Positions 5,482-31,122 of a stretch of 37,095 nt of DNA are shown here, piece by piece (position 1 is the stretch's first letter; each line of letters begins with the position of its first letter). The stretch covers positions 1 to 37,095 of the IMG/VR virus record IMGVR_UViG_3300045988_070690; one strand, written 5' to 3'. The position numbers and the translations under genes are program-made. This stretch comes from a virus. The notes under the pieces were generated by a model that had not been told where the DNA came from, ran no database searches, and saw only the letters and a list, made by a program, of their open reading frames with translations.

Positions 5482-6369
5482 TCAGGTCTTAGATACCGAT
5501 GCGTAGATGCCAAACTTCTTGTTGTCGTACACCTCTGTGATGCCGTAAGCACGGTAGAAGTACAGCCATGCATCAGAGTGCTGGTTCTGCTCCGGTGTGA
5601 TGACCTTGTTTACAGTGTGCTTGGTGAACTGGATCGGGGAATTTTTCTGCACGATCAGGAAGTTCAACTTCTTGCCTGCGGTTGCTGCCTTATATCCGCC
5701 GGCACTCTCATCAGCACCGGAAGAACCCGTCTTATCTACGCCGGAGAGCAGGTCAATGGCACTGTAAAAACGCGACTGCGGTACGCGGATTGTCTTCGCA
5801 AAGCCCGCCAGCATCGCCTTGGACTTGTAAGTGTCCAGTGCCTGAATCGCGTTGTACATAGTCGGTGTGATGTACAGCAGGCGGCTTTCCTGCGGCACCT
5901 CTGCCTCGTCCATAGCGATGTTTGCAGCGGTAATCGCAGCACAAACTGCCGCACCGTCTGCGAGATCTTCGCTCTTGTTGGTGCCAGCTGCCTTTGCATA
6001 TGCAGCAAAACGCCACGCGTCCATTTCCGGCACGACCTTGGTACGGATAAACTCAGAAGCAAGCTTTCCGAAGGACAGTGCTGCGGTTTCCTCGTTGTCC
6101 ATAGCGTCCACACTGAACCGTCTGCCGCGGTCGTAGTTAAACGTCTTTTCAACCCACTCCAGATCTACGTCACCGGACACGTAGCCGTCCTTGCGGCTGT
6201 AGTCCCCAAGACCGTCCATGCTCATCTTGGGGATCAAGATCGTCCGTGCATTGCTGCCCTGCCGTACAGTGCTGGAATCCGATTCCAGATCTGCTGTCAG
6301 TGTAGCACTCTTGTACACTTCGTCCAGCAGTTCGATATACTTTTTAATCAGTGTGAGATTGTTTGCCAT
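5482..6369 (-). CDS. Major capsid protein
   Basis: 295 aa. MANNLTLIKKYIELLDEVYKSATLTADLESD..IPKMSMDGLGDYSR resembles SPP1/A118-type major capsid proteins. It follows the scaffold gene. Confidence 0.85.
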   Translation of the reverse strand: MANNLTLIKKYIELLDEVYKSATLTADLESDSSTVRQGSNARTILIPKMSMDGLGDYSRKDGYVSGDVDLEWVEKTFNYDRGRRFSVDAMDNEETAALSFGKLASEFIRTKVVPEMDAWRFAAYAKAAGTNKSEDLADGAAVCAAITAANIAMDEAEVPQESRLLYITPTMYNAIQALDTYKSKAMLAGFAKTIRVPQSRFYSAIDLLSGVDKTGSSGADESAGGYKAATAGKKLNFLIVQKNSPIQFTKHTVNKVITPEQNQHSDAWLYFYRAYGITEVYDNKKFGIYASVSKT

Positions 6370-6384
6370 ATCTTATCTCCTTTC

Positions 6385-6909
6385 TCACTTCAAGCCCATG
6401 ACACGGCGGACCATTTCGTCCGTCACATCTTTGTTTGTGCTGCCGGTTGCGGAATCCACAAAAATCGGCGGCTTTTCATCTTCCGTTGAAAATGCGTCAG
6501 GGCAGCTTTTTTTCAGTGCCTTTACCACATCTTCACCACCAAGCAGTGTGTCACCGTCAAATTTCAGCTGTTTGCTTTCAATCTGACGCTTCAGATAGTC
6601 TGCATAGATCGGATTCTTGCAGCCCTGCTGTGCCACAAACTTGTCCAGTTTGGTGCTGTACTCCAGCTTCTGCATCTGATCTTGTGCAGCCTCATACTTC
6701 TTCTGCCAGTCGGCAGCAGACTGCTTGATGCCGTCGATGTCCATATCGGCATACGACTTGATTTTGTCGTTTGCATCGTTCAGCTGCCCCGTGACAGCGT
6801 CCAGCTTCGCCTGCAGAGCGTTGTAGTCCGCTTCGCTGTAGGTTTTTGCCTGAGGCTCCGGTGTCTGCTCCTGCTGCTGTTCCGGCTCGTTTTTGGTTTC
6901 GTCTTCCAT
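6385..6909 (-). CDS. Capsid scaffolding protein
   Basis: 174 aa with an acidic, Gln-rich N-terminus and coiled-coil character (EQQQEQTPEPQAKTYSEADYNALQAKLDAVTGQL). It lies directly upstream of the capsid gene. Confidence 0.8.
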   Translation of the reverse strand: MEDETKNEPEQQQEQTPEPQAKTYSEADYNALQAKLDAVTGQLNDANDKIKSYADMDIDGIKQSAADWQKKYEAAQDQMQKLEYSTKLDKFVAQQGCKNPIYADYLKRQIESKQLKFDGDTLLGGEDVVKALKKSCPDAFSTEDEKPPIFVDSATGSTNKDVTDEMVRRVMGLK

Positions 6910-6945
6910 GTTTTTTCATCCCTTTCTGAAAAATGATATAAAAAT

Positions 6946-21867: not shown

Positions 21868-22417
21868 CTCGCTTTCTTTTTAGATTTGTGGTAGGCACTG
21901 ATCTGCTCAATGCCCAGAAGCACCGGCACACGCATATCTCATGCGGGACGGTATGCACTGTGTGCTTTTACAGGCTTTCAGCCGCCTGTGGTCGCTGCTG
22001 TACTAGGTCTGCGTAACGTTATCACAGCCTTGCCCACAGCTGGGCTGGTGGAGCGTTCGGGGGTTGCACCTAAAGCTGTGGATTGTCAGCCCACAGCATG
22101 ACTGCATCGCTCCCCTTGCGGCGGCATCGTACTAGCCGCCGCGTGGAGAAAAATAAAAATGGAGGTATTACGCCATCATGGCGTTTTGAAGATGTTGGTG
22201 CGGCGTGCCGGAGTTGCACCGGAGCCGGTGGAAAGGTTGACCGGCTATCTGTTCGCCACATCTGACCGCGGTGTTGGCAGCACCACGGTCAGTTGCAATT
22301 GAAAGGAGTACACCGAGCAGTTTAACGTCTTACTCTGGACGGCTTTTTTGTTGTCCGCCAGTCGCGGACGTGTGGAAGCGGTCAGTTTAGAGCCGTACCG
22401 CCGGACGGCTTGAAAAA
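21868..22417 (-). ncRNA. Candidate structured non-coding RNA, distal block (about 550 nt)
   Basis: No RBS-led ORF. GC-rich with many perfect stems (22118-22125/22135-22142; 22262-22292; 22391-22410). One G.U pair forms only in the minus-strand sense. Confidence 0.4.
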
Positions 22418-22418
22418 T
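22372..22418. repeat. 47-bp direct repeat, left copy (44/47 identical to 23325-23371), containing hairpin AGCCGT-N8-ACGGCT
   Basis: Aligned by eye: GTGGAAGCGGTCAGTTTAGAGCCGTACCGCCGGACGGCTTGAAAAAT versus GTGGAAACGGTCAGTTTAGAGCCGTACCGCCGGACGGCTGGAAAAGT. Confidence 0.9.
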
Positions 22419-22894
22419 CAATACACCATTCCATTTTCGCGAATATGCATAAAGCCGCGAATTAGCCATGTCGGAACTTGTGAGTATCCAACGAAACCGC
22501 TTTTTTCATTGTAAACCGCTTGCTGTATATCATATGCTACACACCTACCAGCCCTATTCTCAATCAAAATATAGCATTTTTCGCCATTTTCCGGTTTCGT
22601 TTTATCGGTGTAGTTACCATGCCACTTTCTGAGATCCATAATATTTTTCTCATAATAGGCTCTAATTGATTTGTTAAAAAGAACTTCATATGCTGTAACG
22701 ATTTCCCCGCTGTTGCGTTTATCCTGTCCAATCGGATATGCAACCATAACAACATTTTCGCCGTTCTTATCACATTCATATAACACATTACATACTTCAC
22801 AACTGCCATTATTAAATTTGCACAATACTGGCGGATAATGCAAGGCAACTTTCATAATATCGTCAATGCTCATGCCATTTGTTTTTTTTAACAT
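22418..22894 (-). CDS. Orphan protein (158 aa) of the AT-rich cassette
   Basis: ATG follows a GGAGGAAAAAAGAA RBS. Sequence starts MLKKTNGMSIDDIMKVALHYPPVLCKFNNGSCEVCNVLYECDK... No family recognised. Confidence 0.6.
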   Translation of the reverse strand: MLKKTNGMSIDDIMKVALHYPPVLCKFNNGSCEVCNVLYECDKNGENVVMVAYPIGQDKRNSGEIVTAYEVLFNKSIRAYYEKNIMDLRKWHGNYTDKTKPENGEKCYILIENRAGRCVAYDIQQAVYNEKSGFVGYSQVPTWLIRGFMHIRENGMVY

Positions 22895-23035: not shown

Positions 23036-23275
23036 CTACTTTTTTACATAGTCCTTAAAATGCTTCATAGGCTTATCGACTTCATAACCCCAGCGTTTTA
23101 TAATATTTTCGTTGCCTTCCTCCATAAAAACATTGACTTCAAAAAAGATTGTTTCTGTGTTTTCTGGAAGTGTTTCTCTAATTTCCTTGCACTTTTGCAA
23201 AGAAGCAGAGATGAACAAAACCGTCTCACGTAATACGTTTTTTGAAATATCGATTGCAGAAACAGAATACAGCAT
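23036..23275 (-). CDS. Orphan protein (79 aa) of the AT-rich cassette
   Basis: ATG follows a GGAGGTATAAAGTC RBS. Sequence starts MLYSVSAIDISKNVLRETVLFISASLQKCKEIRETL... No family recognised. Confidence 0.55.
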   Translation of the reverse strand: MLYSVSAIDISKNVLRETVLFISASLQKCKEIRETLPENTETIFFEVNVFMEEGNENIIKRWGYEVDKPMKHFKDYVKK

Positions 23276-23637
23276 GACTTTATACCTCCATGAATTTATT
23301 TTTTACGTGTTTTCGCCTGTCGGCGTGGAAACGGTCAGTTTAGAGCCGTACCGCCGGACGGCTGGAAAAGTAGCATTTACTCTCCCGACGGGTGTTGGTG
23401 GATGCTGCGGAATTGCACCGCACAGCAAGACAGAGGAAACGAAATAGACAATGCTCCCTGTTGGAGACAGCTGCCACGGAGTTGCACCGTGCATTGCCCA
23501 GAGGCTTCATATCTCTCAGCTGGACAACTAAGACGCACCCCCAATTATGCGGTGATACGCCACCACCTTATGCTTATTCGCTTTCCCTATAGGCGGGAAA
23601 CAAAATTTTCAGTCGTTCGCGTTTTGCCCTTGACTGT
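23276..23637 (-). ncRNA. Candidate structured non-coding RNA / long leader, promoter-proximal block (about 360 nt)
   Basis: It starts just downstream of the leftward consensus promoter. No credible ORF. Contains two T-arm-like hairpins (23475-23491, 23406-23422). Confidence 0.4.
23325..23371. repeat. 47-bp direct repeat, right copy
   Basis: See 22372-22418. The copies start 953 bp apart. Confidence 0.9.
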
Positions 23638-23643
23638 AATTAA

Positions 23644-23672
23644 ATTATAGCACATAACGCCAACATTGTCAA
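23644..23672 (-). promoter_or_regulatory. Early leftward promoter, perfect TTGACA-17-TATAAT
   Basis: Minus strand: -35 at 23667-23672, -10 at 23644-23649, 17-nt spacer. Confidence 0.8.
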
Positions 23673-23680
23673 CTGGAATA

Positions 23681-23727
23681 TTACACAAATCGCATACGAT
23701 ATTTTTGTGCAGTTTGCGTAATGTGAA
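23681..23727. promoter_or_regulatory. Imperfect inverted repeat between the divergent promoters (candidate repressor operator)
   Basis: TTACACAAATCGCA (23681-23694) versus the reverse complement of TGCGTAATGTGAA (23715-23727). The core CACAwwwCGCA is shared. Confidence 0.35.
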
Positions 23728-23746: not shown

Positions 23747-23775
23747 TTGACAGCGTTCACGTTTTGTAGTATAAT
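23747..23775 (+). promoter_or_regulatory. Rightward repressor promoter, perfect TTGACA-17-TATAAT
   Basis: -35 at 23747-23752, -10 at 23770-23775. A GGAGG RBS follows, then ATG at 23800. Confidence 0.8.
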
Positions 23776-23799: not shown

Positions 23800-24306
23800 A
23801 TGTGCTGGTATGAAATCTTGAAAACACTACGCGAAAAATCTGGGGAATCCATGTCGAAAACAGCAGAATTTCTTGGAATCCCAAAAGGTACGTATGCAAG
23901 CTATGAGTACGGGAAGCGAGAGCCTAACATAGAAATGATTTTGAAAATTTCAGATCATTTCGGCGTAGCAATTGACTATCTACTAGGTGGGAAATCCGCG
24001 GAAACGCCAGAAGACACCATAAAAAGGCTTGCAAAGCAGTACAAGATGACAGATGCACAGAGGGGTATTGCAGCCGCATACTTTTATATGGACAAAGAAA
24101 ACCGAGAAAAGCTTCTGGAGATCGTCAGGACGTTTGCAGACAGTGCAGATGCCGCGGAATCCAAAGAATCCCGCGAAAAATTCGAAAAAGTCAAGGTTGC
24201 AGCTTACCAAAATCCCGCCGGAAGTATCCCACGTGAAGCAGAGTATCCGCAGGAGCTGCTTGACGATATGGACAAAAACGCCCCTCTGACAGACCCAGAT
24301 ATGTGA
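23800..24306 (+). CDS. XRE-family repressor (ImmR-like)
   Basis: 168 aa. HTH LREKSGESMSKTAEFLGIPKGTYASYEYGKREPNIEMILKISDHFGVAIDYLLG. No S24 peptidase domain. Followed by the ImmA-like gene. Confidence 0.85.
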   Translation: MCWYEILKTLREKSGESMSKTAEFLGIPKGTYASYEYGKREPNIEMILKISDHFGVAIDYLLGGKSAETPEDTIKRLAKQYKMTDAQRGIAAAYFYMDKENREKLLEIVRTFADSADAAESKESREKFEKVKVAAYQNPAGSIPREAEYPQELLDDMDKNAPLTDPDM

Positions 24307-24362
24307 TACAGCATCATAAAAAGTCACCTTAGTGGTATACTACCATGCAGAGAGGTGACTGT

Positions 24363-24890
24363 ATGAAGCGTATCTATCAGACCGCCGCAGAAGCAAGCTT
24401 ATGCTGCTTGCTGTCCTGCGGCGTTTCTGCACTACCGGTAAAGCCAGTGCGTATCGTGATGCACTACGATGTGCCGTGCTTTGACTGTGCACACCCGCTT
24501 CTGGAAGGGGAGATAGGGCGTATCATCAAGCGGGCGGACGGCAGAGTGCAGATCGTGCTGGACCCGTCGAAGCCGATACCGCAAAAGCGTTTTGCAGTGG
24601 CTCACGAGCTGGGGCACTATCTTCTGGGGCATCTGGACAGACCACCGGAGCCAGAGGACGAGTGTGACGCAGACCGCTTCGCAGACGGCGTTCTGATGCC
24701 GCTGTGTGTGCTCTACGGCGTTCAAGCGTTCGATACGTCAACTATATCGCGTGTCTGTAAAGTCCCTCACGCAGCCGCACAACGCCGTTCTGACGGGTTT
24801 AAAGCTTTTCACAAAAAAAGAAAGCCGGAAAGTGTGTTGGAACGGCAGGTGTACGAGCAGTTCCGGCAGTTTATCGACAGCAGCAGATAA
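24363..24890 (+). CDS. ImmA/IrrE-family zinc metallopeptidase (anti-repressor protease)
   Basis: HELGHYLLGH (HExxH motif). ATG at 24363 follows an AGAGGTGA RBS. Classic immR-immA gene order. Confidence 0.8.
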   Translation: MKRIYQTAAEASLCCLLSCGVSALPVKPVRIVMHYDVPCFDCAHPLLEGEIGRIIKRADGRVQIVLDPSKPIPQKRFAVAHELGHYLLGHLDRPPEPEDECDADRFADGVLMPLCVLYGVQAFDTSTISRVCKVPHAAAQRRSDGFKAFHKKRKPESVLERQVYEQFRQFIDSSR

Positions 24891-25052: not shown

Positions 25053-26012
25053 ATGAAAAAGAAGTTTATATCCATTTTGCTGGCTGGTGCTATCGCTGCA
25101 TCGCTATCTGCATGCGGAACGGAGCAAGAAAAGCCAGAAAGCAGCAAGCAAACAGAAACTGCCACTAGCACGACACTTGCAACGACTGGGACAAAATCGA
25201 CATATAAAATTGTAAAAAGCACGACCGCAGCAGTAGCGACGCAACCTGCAGAGCCGGACAAAATAGATACTCTGGCGACCGTGGGAGATGCAACATTTTC
25301 TGTTTCGTCAAATTGGACAAAAACGGAAGATAAAAACACTGTGTATTGGGCGAAAACAAGTTACAGTTGCTTTTTTGTGTATAAGTCTGAGGTTCAATAC
25401 AACGATTCAAAATCGTGTATGCGGCAAATTTATGACGAATTCACAAAAAGTGACAATATCGACGGATACAGCATGACAGAAGACACGACGATAGGCGGCG
25501 TAGAGGGCATCAGGTTTGACGCTGTCACAGTGCCAGACGAAGATGATTTCAGCCGGAAAGCCGTGTACTATGTCACTGTGTATAACGGGAACGCATACTG
25601 TTTCGCGTTCGTTGATCGCTGTGTCAGTGATGCGGAAATTTTCGGGTTTGAAGATGAGATAGTAAGCTCCATTTCGTTTTCCGGAGCAGCTGCAGAAACC
25701 CAGACAGCGGCAGAGAGCAGCGTCACAATCGGAATGGCAAATGCTGTCGAAACCGCAAAGAATTACCTTAAATTTACATCTTTTTCGTATCAAGGACTTG
25801 TCGATCAGTTGCTGTATGAAAAGTACACGCAAGAGGAAGCAGTATATGGTGCAGACAACTGCGGAGCAGACTGGAATGAACAGGCAGCAAAATGTGCAGA
25901 AAGTTATATGGAATACTCATCATTTTCAAGACAAGATTTGTACGATCAGTTAATATATGAAAAATTTACAGATGAACAGGCTGAATACGGCGTTCAGTCT
26001 GTCGGATATTAA
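25053..26012 (+). CDS. Ltp-like surface lipoprotein (candidate superinfection exclusion)
   Basis: 319 aa. Signal peptide with lipobox LSAC. Two C-terminal Ltp-type repeats (AVETAKNYLKFTSFSYQGLVDQLLYEKYTQEEAVYGADN / AAKCAESYMEYSSFSRQDLYDQLIYEKFTDEQAEYGVQS). Confidence 0.8.
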   Translation: MKKKFISILLAGAIAASLSACGTEQEKPESSKQTETATSTTLATTGTKSTYKIVKSTTAAVATQPAEPDKIDTLATVGDATFSVSSNWTKTEDKNTVYWAKTSYSCFFVYKSEVQYNDSKSCMRQIYDEFTKSDNIDGYSMTEDTTIGGVEGIRFDAVTVPDEDDFSRKAVYYVTVYNGNAYCFAFVDRCVSDAEIFGFEDEIVSSISFSGAAAETQTAAESSVTIGMANAVETAKNYLKFTSFSYQGLVDQLLYEKYTQEEAVYGADNCGADWNEQAAKCAESYMEYSSFSRQDLYDQLIYEKFTDEQAEYGVQSVGY

Positions 26013-26067: not shown

Positions 26068-27657
26068 TTGGACACATACTGTATATATCTACGAAAATCG
26101 CGTGCGGACGCAGAAGCTGAAGCACGCGGAGAGGGCGAAACCCTGGCACGGCACGAGCACACACTGTGCGACTTAGCCAAGCGGCAGAAGCTCCACATAT
26201 CTAAGATATACCGCGAGATCGTATCCGGCGAAACGATCGCAGCAAGACCGCAGATGCAGCAGCTTCTGCAAGACGTGGAAAGCGGCATATACGCTGGTGT
26301 GCTGGTCATGGAGGTAGAGCGACTTGCCCGCGGTGACACCATAGATCAAGGCATCGTGGCACAAGCTTTTAAGTACTCTGGCACAAAGATCGTCACACCT
26401 ACTAAGACGTATGACCCAGACAATGAGTTTGACGAGGAATACTTCGAATTTTCACTTTTTATGTCACGGAGAGAGTACAAGACGATCAAGCGGCGTATGC
26501 AGGCAGGGCGTGCAGCAGCGGCGAAAGAGGGAAAATTTGTCGGAAATATCCCGCCTTACGGATACGACCGGAAAAAGCTTGACCATGACAGTGGCTTTAT
26601 GCTGGTACCAAACGAAAAGGCAAAAATTGTAAAAATGATATTTGAGTGGTACACTGTGGGTGTCGTCATGCCAGACGGAACGCGGCAGCGAATCGGCACG
26701 ACACACATCGCAAACCGACTGCATCAAATGGGCATAAAAACGCCACGGGGCGGGCGTTGGAACAACTACTCTGTCCGCAGTATACTGCTTAACCCCGTGT
26801 ACTGCGGTGTTATCCGGTGGGGATACCGCAGGGGTAAAAGCAAGCTGCAAAACGGCGTCATCACTAAAACGCGACCGACAGCCGAAGATGGATATATAGA
26901 AGCAAAAGGCTTGCACGATCCTCTCATATCGCAAGAGACCTATGACACCGCACAGGAACTTGCACACGCCGCTGCAAAGATACCCAAGGTTAAGCTGGGC
27001 GGGGCTCTCAAAAATCCGTTAGCGGGGATTGTGGTGTGCCGTAAATGCGGGAAAAGCATGGGGCGGCAGCCATACACAAGTGAAAGGTACAGCGGCGAAA
27101 TGCTGATCTGCAAAACCCCCGACTGCCGGTGCGTTTCATCTGATATACACATAGTGGAGCAACGGCTGCTTGATAGCCTTGCAGAGTGGCTGCATCAGTA
27201 TGAGGTACAGTGGCAGGAGCACACGATGCAAGCCACAGCCGCCGAACCGAAGGACGATCAGACCGCCGTCTTAGAAGATCTTCGGAAAGAGCAAGCAAAG
27301 GCAAAAGCACAGCTTGCAAAAGCTTACGATCTGCTAGAGCAAGAGATATACGACACCAACACCTTTGTGGAGCGTTCCAGCATCTTAAAAGCAAAAATCT
27401 CCGATTTGCAGGACAGTATAGACCATATAGAGAAAAGCGTGCGGGAGATGTCATCGCGTGACGATGACATGCAAAAGATCATACCAAAGGTAAAGCATAT
27501 CTTAGAGGTATACAGCACGCTTCCAGATGCGTCAGCGAAAAACCAGCTGCTTAAAGAAGTACTTGAAAAAGCAGAGTACAGCAAAGACCACAGCACCCGC
27601 TGGCACGGAAATCCCGACGATTTTGACCTTGTGATTTTCCCGAAACTTCCAAGGTGA
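26068..27657 (+). CDS. int: Large serine recombinase (integrase)
   Basis: 529 aa with a TTG start. Catalytic N-terminus CIYLRKSRAD..ETLARHE, recombinase domain, zinc-ribbon (CRKCGKSM..CKTPDC) and C-terminal coiled coil. Confidence 0.9.
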   Translation: MDTYCIYLRKSRADAEAEARGEGETLARHEHTLCDLAKRQKLHISKIYREIVSGETIAARPQMQQLLQDVESGIYAGVLVMEVERLARGDTIDQGIVAQAFKYSGTKIVTPTKTYDPDNEFDEEYFEFSLFMSRREYKTIKRRMQAGRAAAAKEGKFVGNIPPYGYDRKKLDHDSGFMLVPNEKAKIVKMIFEWYTVGVVMPDGTRQRIGTTHIANRLHQMGIKTPRGGRWNNYSVRSILLNPVYCGVIRWGYRRGKSKLQNGVITKTRPTAEDGYIEAKGLHDPLISQETYDTAQELAHAAAKIPKVKLGGALKNPLAGIVVCRKCGKSMGRQPYTSERYSGEMLICKTPDCRCVSSDIHIVEQRLLDSLAEWLHQYEVQWQEHTMQATAAEPKDDQTAVLEDLRKEQAKAKAQLAKAYDLLEQEIYDTNTFVERSSILKAKISDLQDSIDHIEKSVREMSSRDDDMQKIIPKVKHILEVYSTLPDASAKNQLLKEVLEKAEYSKDHSTRWHGNPDDFDLVIFPKLPR

Positions 27658-27670
27658 TTTTTTTGTATCT

Positions 27671-27724
27671 ATCATATATATCATGTGCGTTCGAACCCGC
27701 CTGCTCACACATGATATATGTGAT
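27671..27724. other. Inverted repeat downstream of int: candidate attP core
   Basis: 17-bp arms with one mismatch, including a perfect 12-bp ATATATCATGTG / CACATGATATAT. They flank a 20-bp GC-richer centre (27688-27707). Confidence 0.3.
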
Positions 27725-27774
27725 AAGTCTGCTCATAGCACGTCTTTGAGTGGGTTTTTGTACTGTATGTTTAA

Positions 27775-27879
27775 CTTGCACAAGTTTTCTATGCTTGCTT
27801 TGTGCAAGTATACAAATATATTCTTAATCAACAGAAAACGCTTGACAAATACGCCGAAATGGTGTATAATAATTACAGA
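27775..27879. repeat. 105-bp promoter-carrying direct repeat, copy 1 (71 bp identical to copy 2, upstream part diverged)
   Basis: 27809-27879 equals 28799-28869 exactly. The upstream part holds palindrome CTTGCACAA-N16-TTGTGCAAG (27775-27808). Confidence 0.9.
27842..27870 (+). promoter_or_regulatory. Promoter P1, perfect TTGACA-17-TATAAT
   Basis: -35 at 27842-27847, -10 at 27865-27870. Confidence 0.75.
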
Positions 27880-27925
27880 AAGCACGAGAGGTGCTAAGAA
27901 AAATAAAAAATCGGAGGAAAATAAA

Positions 27926-28372
27926 ATGAGAAAGTATAATCTGGCAAGCATTATGAAAAGAGCATGGGAAATCGTTAAGACTATGGTAGGCGACACTGTT
28001 GCAAAGCTGTCCTACGCACTGAAGCAGGCATGGGCAGAAGCTAAGGCACCGGCAGACGAAATTCTGAGCGGCTGGAACATCACCAAGCTGGAAAAGGCTG
28101 GTGCAAACCGCTGGACTAAGTACGGCAAAGATCGCATGTATCTTAGTGAAACTGGTGATGCTCTCATGAATCTGGAACTGGATTTTTACAAGAGTGGCAA
28201 TGTTTGCGGTGCATGGCTGAACGACGAGAAGATCAGCAACCGCGAAAGTTTCCGTGTAAGAGAAGCTTACTCCAGAGCCTACATCGACCTTGCAAGTGGA
28301 AAAGTGTACGAGTGCGTAGGCAGATATGCAGACGACTTCATGGACAAGCTGAACGCTACTTTTCACGCTTGA
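27926..28372 (+). CDS. Hypothetical protein A (148 aa) of the plus-strand accessory module
   Basis: ATG at 27926 lies 8 nt after GGAGG. Sequence starts MRKYNLASIMKRAWEIVKTMVGDTVAKLSYALKQAWAEAKA... The longer track ORF (from 27683) begins upstream of its own promoter. Confidence 0.6.
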   Translation: MRKYNLASIMKRAWEIVKTMVGDTVAKLSYALKQAWAEAKAPADEILSGWNITKLEKAGANRWTKYGKDRMYLSETGDALMNLELDFYKSGNVCGAWLNDEKISNRESFRVREAYSRAYIDLASGKVYECVGRYADDFMDKLNATFHA

Positions 28373-28374
28373 TC

Positions 28375-28403
28375 TTGACAAATGTTCTGAATAGGTGTAT
28401 ACT
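28375..28403 (+). promoter_or_regulatory. Promoter P2, TTGACA-17-TATACT
   Basis: -35 at 28375-28380, -10 at 28398-28403. Confidence 0.65.
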
Positions 28404-28441
28404 AAATGCATATCAAAAAGAAACAGAAAGGAAGTTTAATC

Positions 28442-28780
28442 ATGATCGATTTTAACGCATTTCGTGCCCTCTATGAGGACGCGAAAACATGCGATTCAGA
28501 AGCAAAGTACGTCATGGAAAGAAGGTGGGAAGATTGGATGAACGGGATCTCCGATAGTGACAAAATCGCCGACGTTCTCCGGAGAATTTACACCATGACG
28601 AACGAGGGTTTTACGGCGATTGTGAGGCAGTATAAAAACATGCGGCAGATGTGCGAAGTGTTGGGTATCCCTTACTCAACAGCACAGAAATGGAGCGTTG
28701 GACATCAGAAGCCGGCATCATATCTCTTGATGCTCATGGTGTACGCTACTGTAAACTATGACAAAATGCACAAATTATAA
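28442..28780 (+). CDS. Hypothetical protein B (112 aa) with a probable C-terminal HTH
   Basis: ATG at 28442 follows an AAAGGAAG RBS. MRQMCEVLGIPYSTAQKWSVGHQKPASYLLMLM resembles XRE/antitoxin-type HTH ends. Confidence 0.55.
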   Translation: MIDFNAFRALYEDAKTCDSEAKYVMERRWEDWMNGISDSDKIADVLRRIYTMTNEGFTAIVRQYKNMRQMCEVLGIPYSTAQKWSVGHQKPASYLLMLMVYATVNYDKMHKL

Positions 28781-28869
28781 GCTTGTGTTTTGTGCATATA
28801 TACAAATATATTCTTAATCAACAGAAAACGCTTGACAAATACGCCGAAATGGTGTATAATAATTACAGA
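28765..28869. repeat. 105-bp promoter-carrying direct repeat, copy 2
   Basis: Palindrome ATGCACAA-N16-TTGTGCAT (28766-28797) has the same 16-bp spacing as copy 1, with one compensatory T/A to A/T change. Confidence 0.9.
28832..28860 (+). promoter_or_regulatory. Promoter P3, perfect TTGACA-17-TATAAT (identical to P1)
   Basis: -35 at 28832-28837, -10 at 28855-28860. Confidence 0.75.
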
Positions 28870-28920
28870 GGTTAGGGAAAAGCCCGAAACCCAAAAATAA
28901 AAACATGGAGGAAAAAGAAA

Positions 28921-29427
28921 ATGCGTGAACTGAAAAATCGTGAAGAAGTTGTAAAGGAACTGGCTAAGATGCTGAGGGAGTTCGATGTAGAAATGAACTC
29001 TTTCGAAACAGATGTTTATCTGTACTACAACGACGAAGAAAAGACCGCTGAACTTGACACCTTCGTAAACGCCGGCGGAAATTCGTGGTTGAACGACGAT
29101 CACGAAACGATTTACAGAGATGAGTGCCACTTCGACAACATGTACGAAGTCGGGTTCCAGTCCATTTCCGATCTGGCGGAAGCAGTGGGACTTTCCGAAA
29201 AGGATTTGATCGTCAAAACGGCGGAATTCCTCGAATTCGATGAAGATGACGATCTGGACGAAATTGATTACTGGGACGTTGTAAGCTTTATCAAGTCCGA
29301 CTGTAACCTTGTGGATAAGGTCAAGGCGGCTTTTGCGGAGTGGATTGACGAGCAAGGCGAAGATTATGAAAGCAAGGCTGACGATATTATCCGCGAGTGG
29401 GAAGAGTACGAGCCGGACGAAGATTGA
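28921..29427 (+). CDS. Highly acidic protein C (168 aa): candidate DNA mimic / anti-restriction-type protein
   Basis: By my count 53 of 168 residues are Asp or Glu (e.g. EFLEFDEDDDLDEIDYWD, EWIDEQGEDYESKADDIIREWEEYEPDED). GGAGG RBS. Confidence 0.55.
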   Translation: MRELKNREEVVKELAKMLREFDVEMNSFETDVYLYYNDEEKTAELDTFVNAGGNSWLNDDHETIYRDECHFDNMYEVGFQSISDLAEAVGLSEKDLIVKTAEFLEFDEDDDLDEIDYWDVVSFIKSDCNLVDKVKAAFAEWIDEQGEDYESKADDIIREWEEYEPDED

Positions 29428-29457
29428 TTCACCTAAGCTAAACCCAAAAAACAAAAT

Positions 29458-29497
29458 CGGCACCGTGGGGAAGTCCCTGCGGTGCCGTTTGCTTTTT
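29458..29497. terminator. Bidirectional terminator between convergent gene C and the endolysin gene
   Basis: CGGCACCG (29458-29465) / CGGTGCCG (29480-29487). T-runs follow it on both strands. Confidence 0.7.
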
Positions 29498-29500
29498 GTT

Positions 29501-30289
29501 TTACTTTACTTCTTTGAAGTTGTCCACGCTTACGTAGCCGGTGACGTACTTGCCTGCCGGCTTTTTGCCGCAGTACTCTTTACGTGTCGTCACGCGATAC
29601 CGCCCCAACTTGCACTGCTTGCCGTCGTAGATGTAGTACACACCAGCCGGCAGAGTAGCGGCGGGAGTGGTCGTCGTATCGTTTGCGAAAAGCTGTGTCT
29701 TAGCCTTGTACAGCCGTACCGCCTGCCCCTTCTTCCAGTCGTATCGCAGCGGGGGATTGCTTGCAGCGGCGTTCGATGACGTACCGCTGCCGCCCATTTT
29801 GGCGGCGACATCTGACAAAAATTTTTTCCAGTGCTGCTCGTCGGCAGTGTCAGAGCCACCCTTGCTTGACGGCACGAACCACTTCGGGCAGACCTTTCCT
29901 GTCACGTCATAGTGCCGGATAACGCCGCCCTTTTGCGGGTGCAGTCCGTACTTTTTGCAAAGATGTGCTGTCAGCTCCACAAGGCTTCTGTACGTGCTGT
30001 CAGAAAATTTTCCTGTCCAGTCAGGGTGGCAGGTTTCGATGCTGACCGTGTAGGAGTTAGCACGGTTCGTGCACCAGCTGACCTCGTTATCTGGGATACA
30101 GCAGATAATCTCGCCTTGCAGCCCTATGATGTAGTTGCTGCTGACCTCGCGGTCGGTCGTCTGAAAATAATTTCGATTGTTGATAGCAGATGTACCGGCG
30201 TTGCCTACCCAGTGCACAGCGATAGCGGTCGTCTTTTTACGCTTGGTATACGGGCGGTTGTGTGTCAGTAGCTTTTGCAAAATGTTCAT
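29501..30289 (-). CDS. Endolysin: N-acetylmuramoyl-L-alanine amidase (Amidase_2/PGRP) with a C-terminal SH3-like binding domain
   Basis: 262 aa. AIAVHWVGNAGTSA..SSNYIIG..SIETCHPDW..IRHYDVTGKVCPKWF. The C-terminal part (WKKGQAVRLYKAKTQLF..GVYYIYDG) is SH3b-like. Confidence 0.85.
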   Translation of the reverse strand: MNILQKLLTHNRPYTKRKKTTAIAVHWVGNAGTSAINNRNYFQTTDREVSSNYIIGLQGEIICCIPDNEVSWCTNRANSYTVSIETCHPDWTGKFSDSTYRSLVELTAHLCKKYGLHPQKGGVIRHYDVTGKVCPKWFVPSSKGGSDTADEQHWKKFLSDVAAKMGGSGTSSNAAASNPPLRYDWKKGQAVRLYKAKTQLFANDTTTTPAATLPAGVYYIYDGKQCKLGRYRVTTRKEYCGKKPAGKYVTGYVSVDNFKEVK

Positions 30290-31122
30290 TTATTTTCCCT
30301 CCCAAGATTTTTCACAATTTCTTTTTCGCGATCGCTTAATGCCCAGCGTTCCGCCTTCTCTCGTTCCGCCTTCTCTCGTTCCGCCTTCTCTCGCTCTGCC
30401 TTCTCTCGTTCCGCCTTCTCTCGCTCTGCCTTCTCTCGCTCTGCGGCACACCGTTCGGATACCAGATAACCGCCGCCAAAAATAGCTTTTTTGCTTTCGA
30501 TTTGAGAATCCAGCCTAGAAATGAACAAACTTTCGCTTTTTTTTACACGGTATTCAATCCCGTATCTGCTATAGGGATTTAGCCGTGCCGATTGTGCCAC
30601 GAATGGCGGAAAAGCATATTTTGGTAGTTTTTTTTTGGCTTCGGTTCTAATTTTGTCGACTGCATTTTTTACCGCAGTGTACAGCGTCGGGCATGTCCGA
30701 AACCTCAAATCTTCCGATTCCAAATTTGTTATAAACGACGTTTTTACAACAGCGTGGTTTTCATATGTAACGTCATTATCAACAATTAATGCCGTACAAT
30801 CGCGATTTCTAAGAACAGAAAAAAGTACCAAGCTGGGTGCAAACAAAAAAAACTGAACGCCGTGCAAAATGTAAAAATCAATGATTTTCGACAAAATGGA
30901 AAATGGTGGGTTATCCACTACAATCTTGCCATCATAGTCAAAATGTTCGTAATCTCCGCCCGGATAAAACGGGCGAACAAAATTTTCACGATCAAGTTTG
31001 TATTCGCTCGCAGTCCACTCCGCCACTGCTTCGTAAACCTCCGTCGGAGTGTAGCAGTCGTCCGTGGTCTTTTTCGGCTTAAATTTTTCCACAAATTCTT
31101 CGTAATTTTCGCCTTTCGCCAT
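30286..31122 (-). CDS. Phage Dam-like N6-adenine DNA methyltransferase-like protein with a C-terminal (AEREK)n repeat
   Basis: 278 aa. TTDDCYTPTEVYEAVAEW and VVDNPPFS (motif IV, NPPF). The C-terminus is AAEREKAEREKAEREKAEREKAEREKAEREKAERW. Translationally coupled to the endolysin gene by a 4-nt overlap. Confidence 0.55.
   Translation of the reverse strand: MAKGENYEEFVEKFKPKKTTDDCYTPTEVYEAVAEWTASEYKLDRENFVRPFYPGGDYEHFDYDGKIVVDNPPFSILSKIIDFYILHGVQFFLFAPSLVLFSVLRNRDCTALIVDNDVTYENHAVVKTSFITNLESEDLRFRTCPTLYTAVKNAVDKIRTEAKKKLPKYAFPPFVAQSARLNPYSRYGIEYRVKKSESLFISRLDSQIESKKAIFGGGYLVSERCAAEREKAEREKAEREKAEREKAEREKAEREKAERWALSDREKEIVKNLGRENK
30349..30444. repeat. Six and a half tandem 15-bp units (TTCCGCCTTCTCTCG / CTCTGCCTTCTCTCG) that encode the AEREK repeat
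   Basis: Counted directly. In-frame coding repeat. Confidence 0.9.

Follow-up and report, generated by a model that had tools for sequence, protein, structure and literature searches.

Morons of lambdoid and other phages are autonomous units of promoter, gene and terminator that lie between core modules, vary between phages and run against late transcription. Control of accessory genes by an immunity regulator bound far from its switch is known from the operators of P1 C1 and the stoperators of mycobacteriophage L5 gp71. The phi29 protein p4 recognizes an inverted repeat whose half-sites lie about two helical turns apart and whose center is some 82 bp upstream of the promoter; by way of RNA polymerase it activates a weak promoter but represses strong ones. 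ArdA, of about 166 amino acids (aa), and T7 Ocr are DNA-mimic anti-restriction proteins, and the ArdA fold, an elongated three-domain DNA-mimic dimer, has been solved and is represented in the PDB. Recruitment of RNA polymerase at the phi29 A3 promoter depends on p4 (PMC2731898). Strong acr promoters are repressed by Aca proteins, which contain a helix-turn-helix (HTH) domain (PMC6765145; PMC9410906), shared regulatory sequences have been used to mark early anti-defense genes in viruses of archaea (PMC11065993), and anti-defense genes are found at the entering edge of conjugative DNA (PMC11541004). The locus compared with these systems here lies in a 37,095-nt stretch of viral DNA, positions 1 to 37,095 of IMG/VR record IMGVR_UViG_3300045988_070690 (hereafter the window), which represents a temperate siphophage of gut Ruminococcus-like bacteria. 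It comprises three small plus-strand genes, A, B and C, placed between the integrase gene with its phage attachment site (attP) and the convergent lysis genes (Table 1).

The region is a cargo island of three independent single-gene expression cassettes, an att-proximal accessory ('moron') island at the end of the prophage. The best overall explanation, to which a probability of roughly 0.55 is given, is that two of these independent cassettes, A and C, are tied to the immunity circuit by a shared operator and kept under negative control. What sets the locus apart from the known systems is a remote, helically phased operator that is shared with the repressor promoter, a separate promoter for each gene, and proteins with no detectable family homology. 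A, B and C are all present as open reading frames (ORFs) where the first-pass annotation had placed them, each with a ribosome-binding site of the GGAGG or AAGGA type, and its description of their promoters was borne out: P1 and P3 are perfect, P2 departs from the consensus at one position, all three are autonomous, and their hexamers are kept in relatives. The same annotation had treated the three genes as a co-occurring module, and that view has to be given up. Among the loci fetched for comparison (L numbers), the trio stands together in L008-L010, L013/L037, L014/L036, L072, L074 and L084, yet A occurs alone in L001, L038, L150 and L152, and B occurs without A or C in many metagenomic contigs. 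In L039 the same locus contains A, three other small genes, B and a 390-aa repeat protein, and in six further loci (L035, L070, L071, L078, L079 and L083) the third slot is occupied by C', an unrelated acidic protein of 95 aa. Separation of this kind was what the annotation had itself named as telling against its proposal. Because A, B and C occur and are replaced separately, they are read as three independent cassettes and not as one three-gene system. Like classical morons, the cassettes are autonomous, with promoters of their own and a terminator, lie at the prophage end between attP and the lysis genes, vary between relatives through replacement of C by C' and through presence or absence of genes, and are opposed to the late genes; unlike classical morons, they share a regulatory head that also stands on the repressor gene and is homogenized within genomes. 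The layout first proposed, that of morons or early counter-defense genes, belongs to the right general class.

Four perfect (12/12) promoters occur on the two strands of the window, against about 0.004 expected by chance (74 kb / 4^12). Two of these are P1 and P3, and the other two form the divergent pair of the immunity switch, at 23672 on the minus strand and 23747 on the plus strand. In at least 12 related phage contigs the promoter hexamers are constant and the spacers between them variable, and P2 is also kept in relatives. P1 and P3 lie within a direct repeat (27796-27879 = 28786-28869; 84 nt, 96% identity) with a core, 27809-27879 = 28799-28869, that is exactly identical over 71 nt, as had been reported; this identity stops at both ends and extends no further. 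In the window, L071, L072, L074, L078 and L079 the heads of P1 and P3 share a type and are 82-96% alike; in L008, L009, L013, L014, L035 and L083 they belong to different types and are about 65% alike. Because the likeness differs in this way between lineages, the two heads appear to have been repeatedly homogenized or exchanged. On this comparison the 71-nt identity is a product of lineage-specific homogenization and not a conserved feature, and the homogenized heads are consistent with recombination handles for the exchange of cargo. An exact search for the 37-nt promoter block in viral and genome collections gave no matches. The transcripts predicted from P1 and P3 have short conserved hairpins at their 5' ends (27881-27895 and 28873-28890), with the form AGCAC-GAGAG-GTGCT in the P1 leader and GGGAAAAGCCC... 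in the P3 leader. The P3 leader is retained with both C and C'. The leftward switch transcript of L008 has a similar motif, GAAAGCACGA, a short distance 3' of its -10 element.

Upstream of P1 and P3 stand the two palindromes with 16-nt spacing that the first-pass annotation had described, here termed O-A and O-C. The pattern TGCACAA-N16-TTGTGCA is matched twice in the window against 0.00 expected, and the shorter CACAA-N16-TTGTG three times against 0.07 expected, the third match being in the immunity switch between its two perfect divergent promoters. A search with the 14-base operator pattern returned the same three window sites and none further when two mismatches were permitted. A half-site-like element, TATACAAA, follows O-A at about 27810-27817, and the last codons of B (M-H-K) form the left half-site of O-C. 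It is only the paired arrangement of half-sites that is specific: the 8-mer TTGYRCAA, considered as a site for a global regulator of the host, was dropped as a candidate, being found five times in the window against 6.6 expected. Over 34 distinct sites the consensus is TGYACAA(A)...(T)TTGTRCA, with half-sites two helical turns apart and a symmetric core of 7-8 bp, and the symmetry reaches two positions past the core that was searched for (33/34 and 26/34 sites). The intervening 14-16 nt vary from site to site and lack self-complementarity. Conservation of the symmetric core across these sites points to selection on the symmetry itself, as had been claimed; the earlier wording allowed either an operator or an RNA stem, and of these the operator is now favored. 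The particular argument that had been offered for selection, a compensatory T/A to A/T change in an outer pair, turned out to be specific to the window, since that pair is complementary in just 5 of the 34 related sites.

The placement of the palindromes is as regular as their sequence. The distance between the palindrome's end and the first base of the -35 element is 38 bp for the repressor promoter, P1 and P3 alike, and on its other side the switch operator lies 12 bp upstream of the -35 element of the leftward promoter (23672->23644). Among all fetched loci, 47 distinct palindrome contexts have a strong downstream promoter, and the offsets concentrate at 37-39 bp (15 contexts) and 47-49 bp (21 contexts); toward the divergent switch promoter the clusters are at 12-13 and 22-23 bp. 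At least three unrelated spacer sequences carry these clustered offsets. On one side the operator is centered at about -85 or -95, on the other at about -60 or -70. Because the offsets shift in steps of 10 bp, the operator keeps to the same face of the helix as seen from RNA polymerase. Directly behind such operator-promoter heads stand the genes for the repressor, the first early gene across the switch, A, C, C' and, in L090, a 69-aa acidic protein. Since the third copy stands in the switch at the identical 38-bp offset, the palindrome is taken as a putative operator common to cassettes A and C and the immunity circuit. As with P1 C1 and the L5 stoperators, immunity-regulator sites would then be dispersed to accessory genes; unlike those systems, the window has just two extra sites, which are symmetric, with a half-site spacing of 21 bp, and which stand at a fixed, helically phased distance upstream of consensus promoters on swappable heads, with the repressor as a candidate ligand. 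The half-site spacing of two turns and the upstream center are also found with phi29 p4, although the analogy does not go beyond mechanism: a p4-like protein is absent, the candidates for binding are HTH proteins, and the half-sites are unrelated in sequence.

Each cassette has a consensus promoter to itself, of the type read by the host housekeeping sigma, together with a leader and a strong ribosome-binding site, and cassettes A and C share a common head of operator, spacer and consensus promoter behind which cargo is exchanged. In the proposed mechanism one DNA-binding protein would act at all three operators from about -85, by contact with RNA polymerase or by looping. A and C would fire from host RNA polymerase at once on DNA entry or induction and would then be damped as the regulator accumulates, as in the lysogen; the repressor would damp its own synthesis, and the upstream factor might hold RNA polymerase at a strong promoter in the manner of phi29 p4. 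B, transcribed from the operator-less P2, would be constitutive. Control is proposed to be negative because the promoters concerned already match the consensus. The Xre-type immunity repressor is the foremost candidate for the protein that binds the operators, at somewhat less than an even chance; some other factor is possible but unlikely, and B is a doubtful candidate, the palindrome being more likely bound by the repressor than by B. The HTH of the repressor (…MSKTAEFLGIPKGTYASYEYGKREP…) is near-identical in the window, L008 and L009, which share half-sites although their other switch motifs differ, and, as in an immunity-repressor regulon, the same operator is found in the switch and at remote genes. 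In L040 operators are present at the switch and upstream of an A homologue, with no full-length B between the lysin gene and the switch; that stretch does encode a protein with a B-like C-terminal HTH. For the earlier suggestion that B is the cognate regulator of the palindrome nothing specific was found, the other copy in the window standing at the repressor promoter and P2 having no palindrome.

Several points weigh against the repressor and, in part, against the scheme as a whole. A second motif, GCGTTCRCGTTTTG, is present at 23614-23627, just 3' of the leftward promoter, and at 23753-23766, within the spacer of the repressor promoter. The motifs at the switch promoters differ between phages, with GCGTTCRCGTTTTG in the window and L009 and GTCTTCAT-N3-GTGCT at both switch promoters of L008. 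These promoter-overlapping motifs may be the true, immunity-specific operators of the repressor, in which case the palindrome would be left to another factor. The recognition helix of the L039 repressor differs, yet the switch palindrome of L039 has the same half-sites. The HTH of B is related to that of the repressors, so B might recognize these sites as well. An operator near -85 does not overlap the promoter, and repression can therefore not be by simple occlusion. Finally, the related operator sites are phylogenetically non-independent. Covariation of half-site variants with the HTH of either B or the repressor had no power, as the recognition helices of both are conserved in close relatives.

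Two other explanations of the cassettes accept a protein-bound palindrome and differ in what it does. A and C may be lysogenic-conversion morons, expressed together with the repressor in the lysogen under an operator that is positive or neutral in effect, and bringing the host a benefit such as superinfection exclusion, defense, or a surface or metabolic change, in place of an early role during infection. A and C do have the same operator-promoter geometry as the repressor gene, which is necessarily on in lysogens, the three cassettes share the strand of the lysogeny genes and converge on the lytic genes, and the lysogeny operon already includes a superinfection-exclusion-like lipoprotein gene. 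The interval from lysin to att is also the classic site of prophage conversion genes, and centers at about -60 and -85 are typical positions of upstream activators. A 12/12 promoter needs no activator, however, and the presence of C-family genes in lytic-looking phage contigs of 100-200 kb and at the edge of an integrative element suits a role in the entry phase better; moreover, PADLOC gave no matches, and the small, acidic proteins are cytoplasmic, their sequences showing neither a signal peptide nor a membrane segment. Conversion is on balance a possible but unlikely account. In the other explanation the locus is of the Acr/Aca kind, with B as a dedicated HTH autoregulator that shuts off P1 and P3 after a burst and with the switch copy of the palindrome secondary or coincidental. 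The locus resembles Acr/Aca loci (acrIIA1 of Listeria prophages, the Aca1 and Aca2 operons) in that these too combine small, often acidic proteins with unusually strong promoters, an adjacent HTH gene, inverted-repeat control sites and variable cargo beside a conserved partner, and in Firmicutes lie between the lysin and the prophage end (PMC6765145; PMC9410906). B has an Xre-like HTH, is driven constitutively by P2 and immediately precedes the slot in which the acidic gene varies, a B-like HTH is fused to one protein of the C family, and known Aca proteins do repress strong acr promoters through inverted repeats (PMC6765145; PMC9410906). Aca proteins autoregulate, whereas P2, the promoter of B, has no palindrome; Aca sites overlap promoters, whereas the window-type operator lies some 38-48 bp upstream of the -35 element; and a third copy with identical geometry stands in the immunity switch. 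Each gene of the window has its own promoter, with no shared operon. L040, L018 and L030 have operators, yet a full-length B was not found at the loci examined there, and most B homologues, among the 80 loci examined, are in palindrome-free contexts. In Pfam and NCBIfam no homology to a named Acr or Aca family was seen, and neither B nor C matched any named family there. An Acr/Aca-like locus is for these reasons improbable.

Two further explanations deny either the operator or the independence of the cassettes that the preferred reading assumes. If the palindromes were RNA hairpins, terminators or stabilizers at the 3' ends of upstream transcripts, it would be natural that O-C overlaps the stop codon of B and that O-A follows the integrase and att region; the C/T variation in the left arm would retain a G-U pair on the plus strand, and O-A of the window folds with a z-score of -3.2. 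The homologous copies, though, have fold z-scores of +0.18 to -1.9, the range with O-A included being +0.18 to -3.2, and folding is not consistently better than that of shuffled sequences, and the stems would be just 7-9 bp long and AT-rich, with unconserved loops of 14-16 nt, inner positions that are not complementary and no proper U-tract. The switch copy is upstream of both promoters and would be transcribed from neither, a fixed and phased offset to the -35 element has no meaning for an RNA element, and a separate terminator-like hairpin already stands ahead of O-A. Scanned against Rfam, the whole window gave no match at gathering score, and 27600-29550 gave none at E <= 1. A protein operator is preferred over an RNA stem because the DNA between the half-sites is variable and not self-complementary and the switch copy is untranscribed, and the RNA explanation is very unlikely. 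That A, B and C are one functional system, such as a toxin-antitoxin or three-component defense system, is unlikelier again, to the point of being scarcely credible. The trio is adjacent in at least eight related contigs and combines a basic protein, one with an HTH and an acidic one, as such a system might; the genes are nevertheless found alone and replaced independently, each has a separate promoter, and none matches a toxin, antitoxin or defense family in PADLOC, Pfam or NCBIfam. A type II toxin-antitoxin pair in particular was rejected, given the separate occurrence, the separate promoters and the lack of a toxin family match.

Table 1. Features of the accessory island, its control sites and the adjoining lysogeny region (positions in the window).
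Feature	Position	Strand	Remarks
Gene A	27926-28372	+	148 aa; ORF with ribosome-binding site; basic, pI 8.8
Gene B	28442-28780	+	112 aa; ORF with ribosome-binding site
Gene C	28921-29427	+	168 aa; ORF with ribosome-binding site; net charge -38, pI 4.05
Promoter P1	27842-27870	+	TTGACA-17-TATAAT; 12/12
Promoter P2	28375-28403	+	TTGACA-17-TATACT; 11/12; begins 3 nt past the A stop codon; without palindrome
Promoter P3	28832-28860	+	TTGACA-17-TATAAT; 12/12
Putative operator O-A	27777-27806		TGCACAA-N16-TTGTGCA; conserved in relatives; ends 38 bp before P1 -35
Putative operator O-C	28767-28796		TGCACAA-N16-TTGTGCA; overlaps the B stop codon; ends 38 bp before P3 -35
Third putative operator	23682-23711		TACACAA-N16-TTGTGCA; immunity switch, between two perfect divergent promoters
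Perfect promoter of repressor gene	23747-23775	+	12/12 match
Xre-type immunity repressor gene	23800-24306	+	HTH shared with L008 and L009
ImmA-like metalloprotease gene	24345-24890	+	downstream of the repressor
Superinfection-exclusion type lipoprotein	25053-26012	+	PHROGs match phrog_4980, E 4e-34; between ImmA-like protease and integrase
Large serine integrase gene	26068-27657	+	precedes the attP candidate
Candidate attP of the serine integrase	27670-27725		imperfect inverted repeat, arms 27670-27687 and 27708-27725, crossover near 27697
Terminator-like hairpin and T-run	27729-27761	+	read from the sequence, between att and the first cassette; lower confidence
Closing terminator	29458-29497		GC-rich hairpin (13 pairs) with T-runs; faces the convergent amidase gene; kept behind both C and C'

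Protein C is extremely acidic, as had been observed at first sight, and belongs to a family in which this is the rule: a profile search of 1.84 billion cluster representatives recovered 319 clusters at 50% identity, and 225 full-length members have a mean net charge of -30 +/- 5. The family is characterized by a conserved N-terminal helix and three-stranded sheet (TDVYLYY...LDTFVN.GGNSWLNDDH), followed by an acidic, helical C-terminal half, and within the N-terminal core TDVYLYY, LDTF and G.S...D.H are invariant. The structure model of C is confident (pLDDT 89.1, pTM 0.80), and Foldseek comparison with the PDB gave nothing at E <= 0.001, with a best TM-score of 0.26, and with BFVD no match. 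A 313-aa member, P0273, has the C domain fused to an Xre-type HTH (residues about 178-224) with a pattern, GIP.RT.E.WE.G.R..P.Y, that resembles the C-terminus of B. This fusion parallels self-regulating anti-defense proteins. Pfam scans of the longer fusion proteins of the family were uninformative except for one HTH_3 fusion. Beyond the phage island, an integrative element (L003-L007) that encodes ParA, DUF6075, ParB_N and DUF6017 and is found at three different insertion sites has as its first gene a C homologue of 52% identity, 332 bp in from the element boundary. The 332 bp between boundary and C homologue (L003 4669-5000, the same in L004-L007) have long hairpins and no consensus promoter of the kind found in the phage cassettes; they might form a single-strand promoter or another entry-phase signal. 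Other C homologues lie within long same-strand arrays of small genes in phage contigs of 100-200 kb (L066-L068). Where C' takes the place of C, palindrome and promoter are retained in the slot, as are the terminator and the 5' leader as far as the ribosome-binding site, and the incoming protein again has a strongly negative net charge, of -16 to -20.

In size (168 aa), extreme acidity, occurrence as a single gene with a strong promoter, and position at an integrative-element edge and in small-gene arrays of large phages, the C family resembles ArdA (PF07275; Tn916 Orf18) and T7 Ocr. Membership in the ArdA family was nonetheless rejected, given the best Foldseek TM-score of 0.26 against the PDB and the absence of a sequence match: Pfam at E <= 1 gave only a spurious HTH_AsnC match, and a profile search of PDB sequences returned no ArdA. 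C and C' are credible anti-defense candidates on the strength of these contexts and their composition, and the narrower proposal that they act as DNA-mimic-like inhibitors of host defense or of other host functions is tentative, falling well short of an even chance. Unlike typical DNA mimics, C has a strongly conserved N-terminal motif, and the several invariant D and H residues in its conserved loop make an enzyme, or a specific protein-binding site, at least as apt a description as a generic mimic. C also matches no known anti-defense family in Pfam, NCBIfam, PADLOC, PHROGs or the PDB. These two points count against a DNA-mimic role. The widest form of the proposal is that C and C', and possibly the 69-aa acidic protein of L090, represent new anti-defense or host-takeover families of unseen fold, shared by temperate phages, integrative conjugative elements and very large phages, and carried as cargo on a portable operator-promoter head that a remote phased operator, working in a p4-like mode, would wire to the immunity circuit; taken as a whole this is speculative and rather unlikely. 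If the preferred model holds, the head TGYACAA-N16-TTGTRCA, 38 or 48 bp, TTGACA-17-TATAAT could serve as a search handle for accessory and anti-defense genes in the almost wholly unannotated phages of gut Clostridia, much as regulatory sequences have served in archaeal viruses (PMC11065993), and the C family, found in three kinds of mobile element, would be a good candidate for a new inhibitor of host defense. The regulatory design would also be unusual, with a fixed and phased operator, common to these cassettes and the repressor gene, lying upstream of consensus promoters, and it poses the question of how a factor bound upstream controls a promoter needing no help. If A and C are merely lysogen-expressed genes, the region would be an ordinary moron island of a well-described sort.

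That A, B and C can be assigned to no described system, as was first stated, was upheld by searches of Pfam, NCBIfam, PADLOC and PHROGs, which returned only PHROGs of unknown function and sub-threshold Pfam matches, and by Foldseek comparison. Profiles of the three proteins searched against PDB sequences gave only spurious matches to coiled-coil or designed proteins, and A and C had no matches in PADLOC-DB. Clear homology to ordinary housekeeping proteins of phages or conjugative elements, which had been named as a possible ground for discarding the annotation, did not come to light in these searches.

Protein A combines a helical hairpin at its N-terminus (IMKRAWEI...ALKQAWAEAK) with an alpha/beta core that includes the motif RWTKYGKDRxY, as seen in the family alignment. 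The hairpin has a weak, sub-threshold Pfam match to Phage_Gp111 (PF07410), and the structure model, although confident (pLDDT 91.6), found no fold match in the PDB with Foldseek. A longer ORF, 27683-28372, was rejected for A because it would cross attP and P1. In L001/L002, a phage whose integrase is of the tyrosine type, a homologue of 82% identity occurs and neither B nor C accompanies it. More distant copies (37-40%) include the first gene at the host junction in L150, convergent with the lysin gene, and a gene just past the lysin in L152, and in several Firmicutes prophages the A homologue is the first gene beside att or lysin. A role as recombination directionality or excision factor for the serine integrase was considered for A and rejected in view of the 82%-identical homologue beside a tyrosine integrase in L002; the other homologues that lie past lysins without a nearby integrase are further evidence against it.

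Protein B consists of an N-terminal domain with a conserved ERGWQDWM motif and a C-terminal Xre-like HTH, and its profile and C-terminal segment align to the HTH of phage repressors. It matches phrog_25567, of unknown function (E 7.7e-33); its profile found no relevant chain among PDB sequences, and PADLOC gave only DpdB at E 0.018 (12 bits). A longer ORF, 28406-28780, was rejected for B because it starts at about the P2 transcription start, the -10 element of P2 ending at 28403. Homologues of B are found past the lysin in the Streptococcus prophages PH15 and Javan242. In L039, where the integrase is 70% identical, the 390-aa protein encoded after B (5741-6913) is made of repeated 'IDLTGQKFGDLTVIDYAG..KWNC.CSCG' units.

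Most genes of the window are on the minus strand, and the plus-strand block consists of the lysogeny genes followed by A, B and C. Ruminococcus appears among the source names of homologues, and a DNA similarity search of GenBank phages returned a single 67-nt match only. The candidate attP is an inverted repeat with 18-nt arms, 94% complementary, directly 3' of the integrase gene. In the window and L078 the order is integrase, both att arms, A, whereas in L079 and L074 the right att arm and A are kept and the DNA to the left is unrelated, the break falling at about 27697, in the center of the repeat. Because relatives diverge in mid-repeat at this point, 27670-27725 is taken as the likely attP of the serine integrase, with the integrated junctions represented among the relatives, and the A-B-C block would therefore start about 100 bp from the host junction in the prophage. 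This comparison of att arms supports the location at the prophage end, between integrase and convergent lysis genes, that had been proposed. The hairpin between att and the first cassette, which a simple terminator scan did not flag, has a stronger counterpart in L078 (GCCCACT...AGTGGGC TTTTGTG) and would block read-through from the integrase gene or the host. The closing hairpin at the other end of the island very probably ends both the cassette array and the convergent lysis operon.

Two further regions of the window have features of their own. On the minus strand between 22350 and 23640, a 45-nt direct repeat (96%; 22372-22416 and 23325-23369) brackets two small minus-strand ORFs (22418-22894 and 23036-23275) and lies within a GC-rich non-coding leader of about 340 nt, downstream of the perfect leftward switch promoter. 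The region has no Rfam match and a fold z-score of just -1.7, and the repeat may represent an RNA element that was duplicated or a scar left by cassette insertion. Between the tail-fiber and amidase genes, the minus-strand gene at 30286-31122 encodes a protein of 278 aa (phrog_21498) that contains a DNPPF motif and weakly matches type II methyltransferases; this may be an orphan adenine methyltransferase serving for self-protection. About six copies of EKAER stand at the end of this protein, encoded by a 15-nt tandem repeat at 30347-30438.

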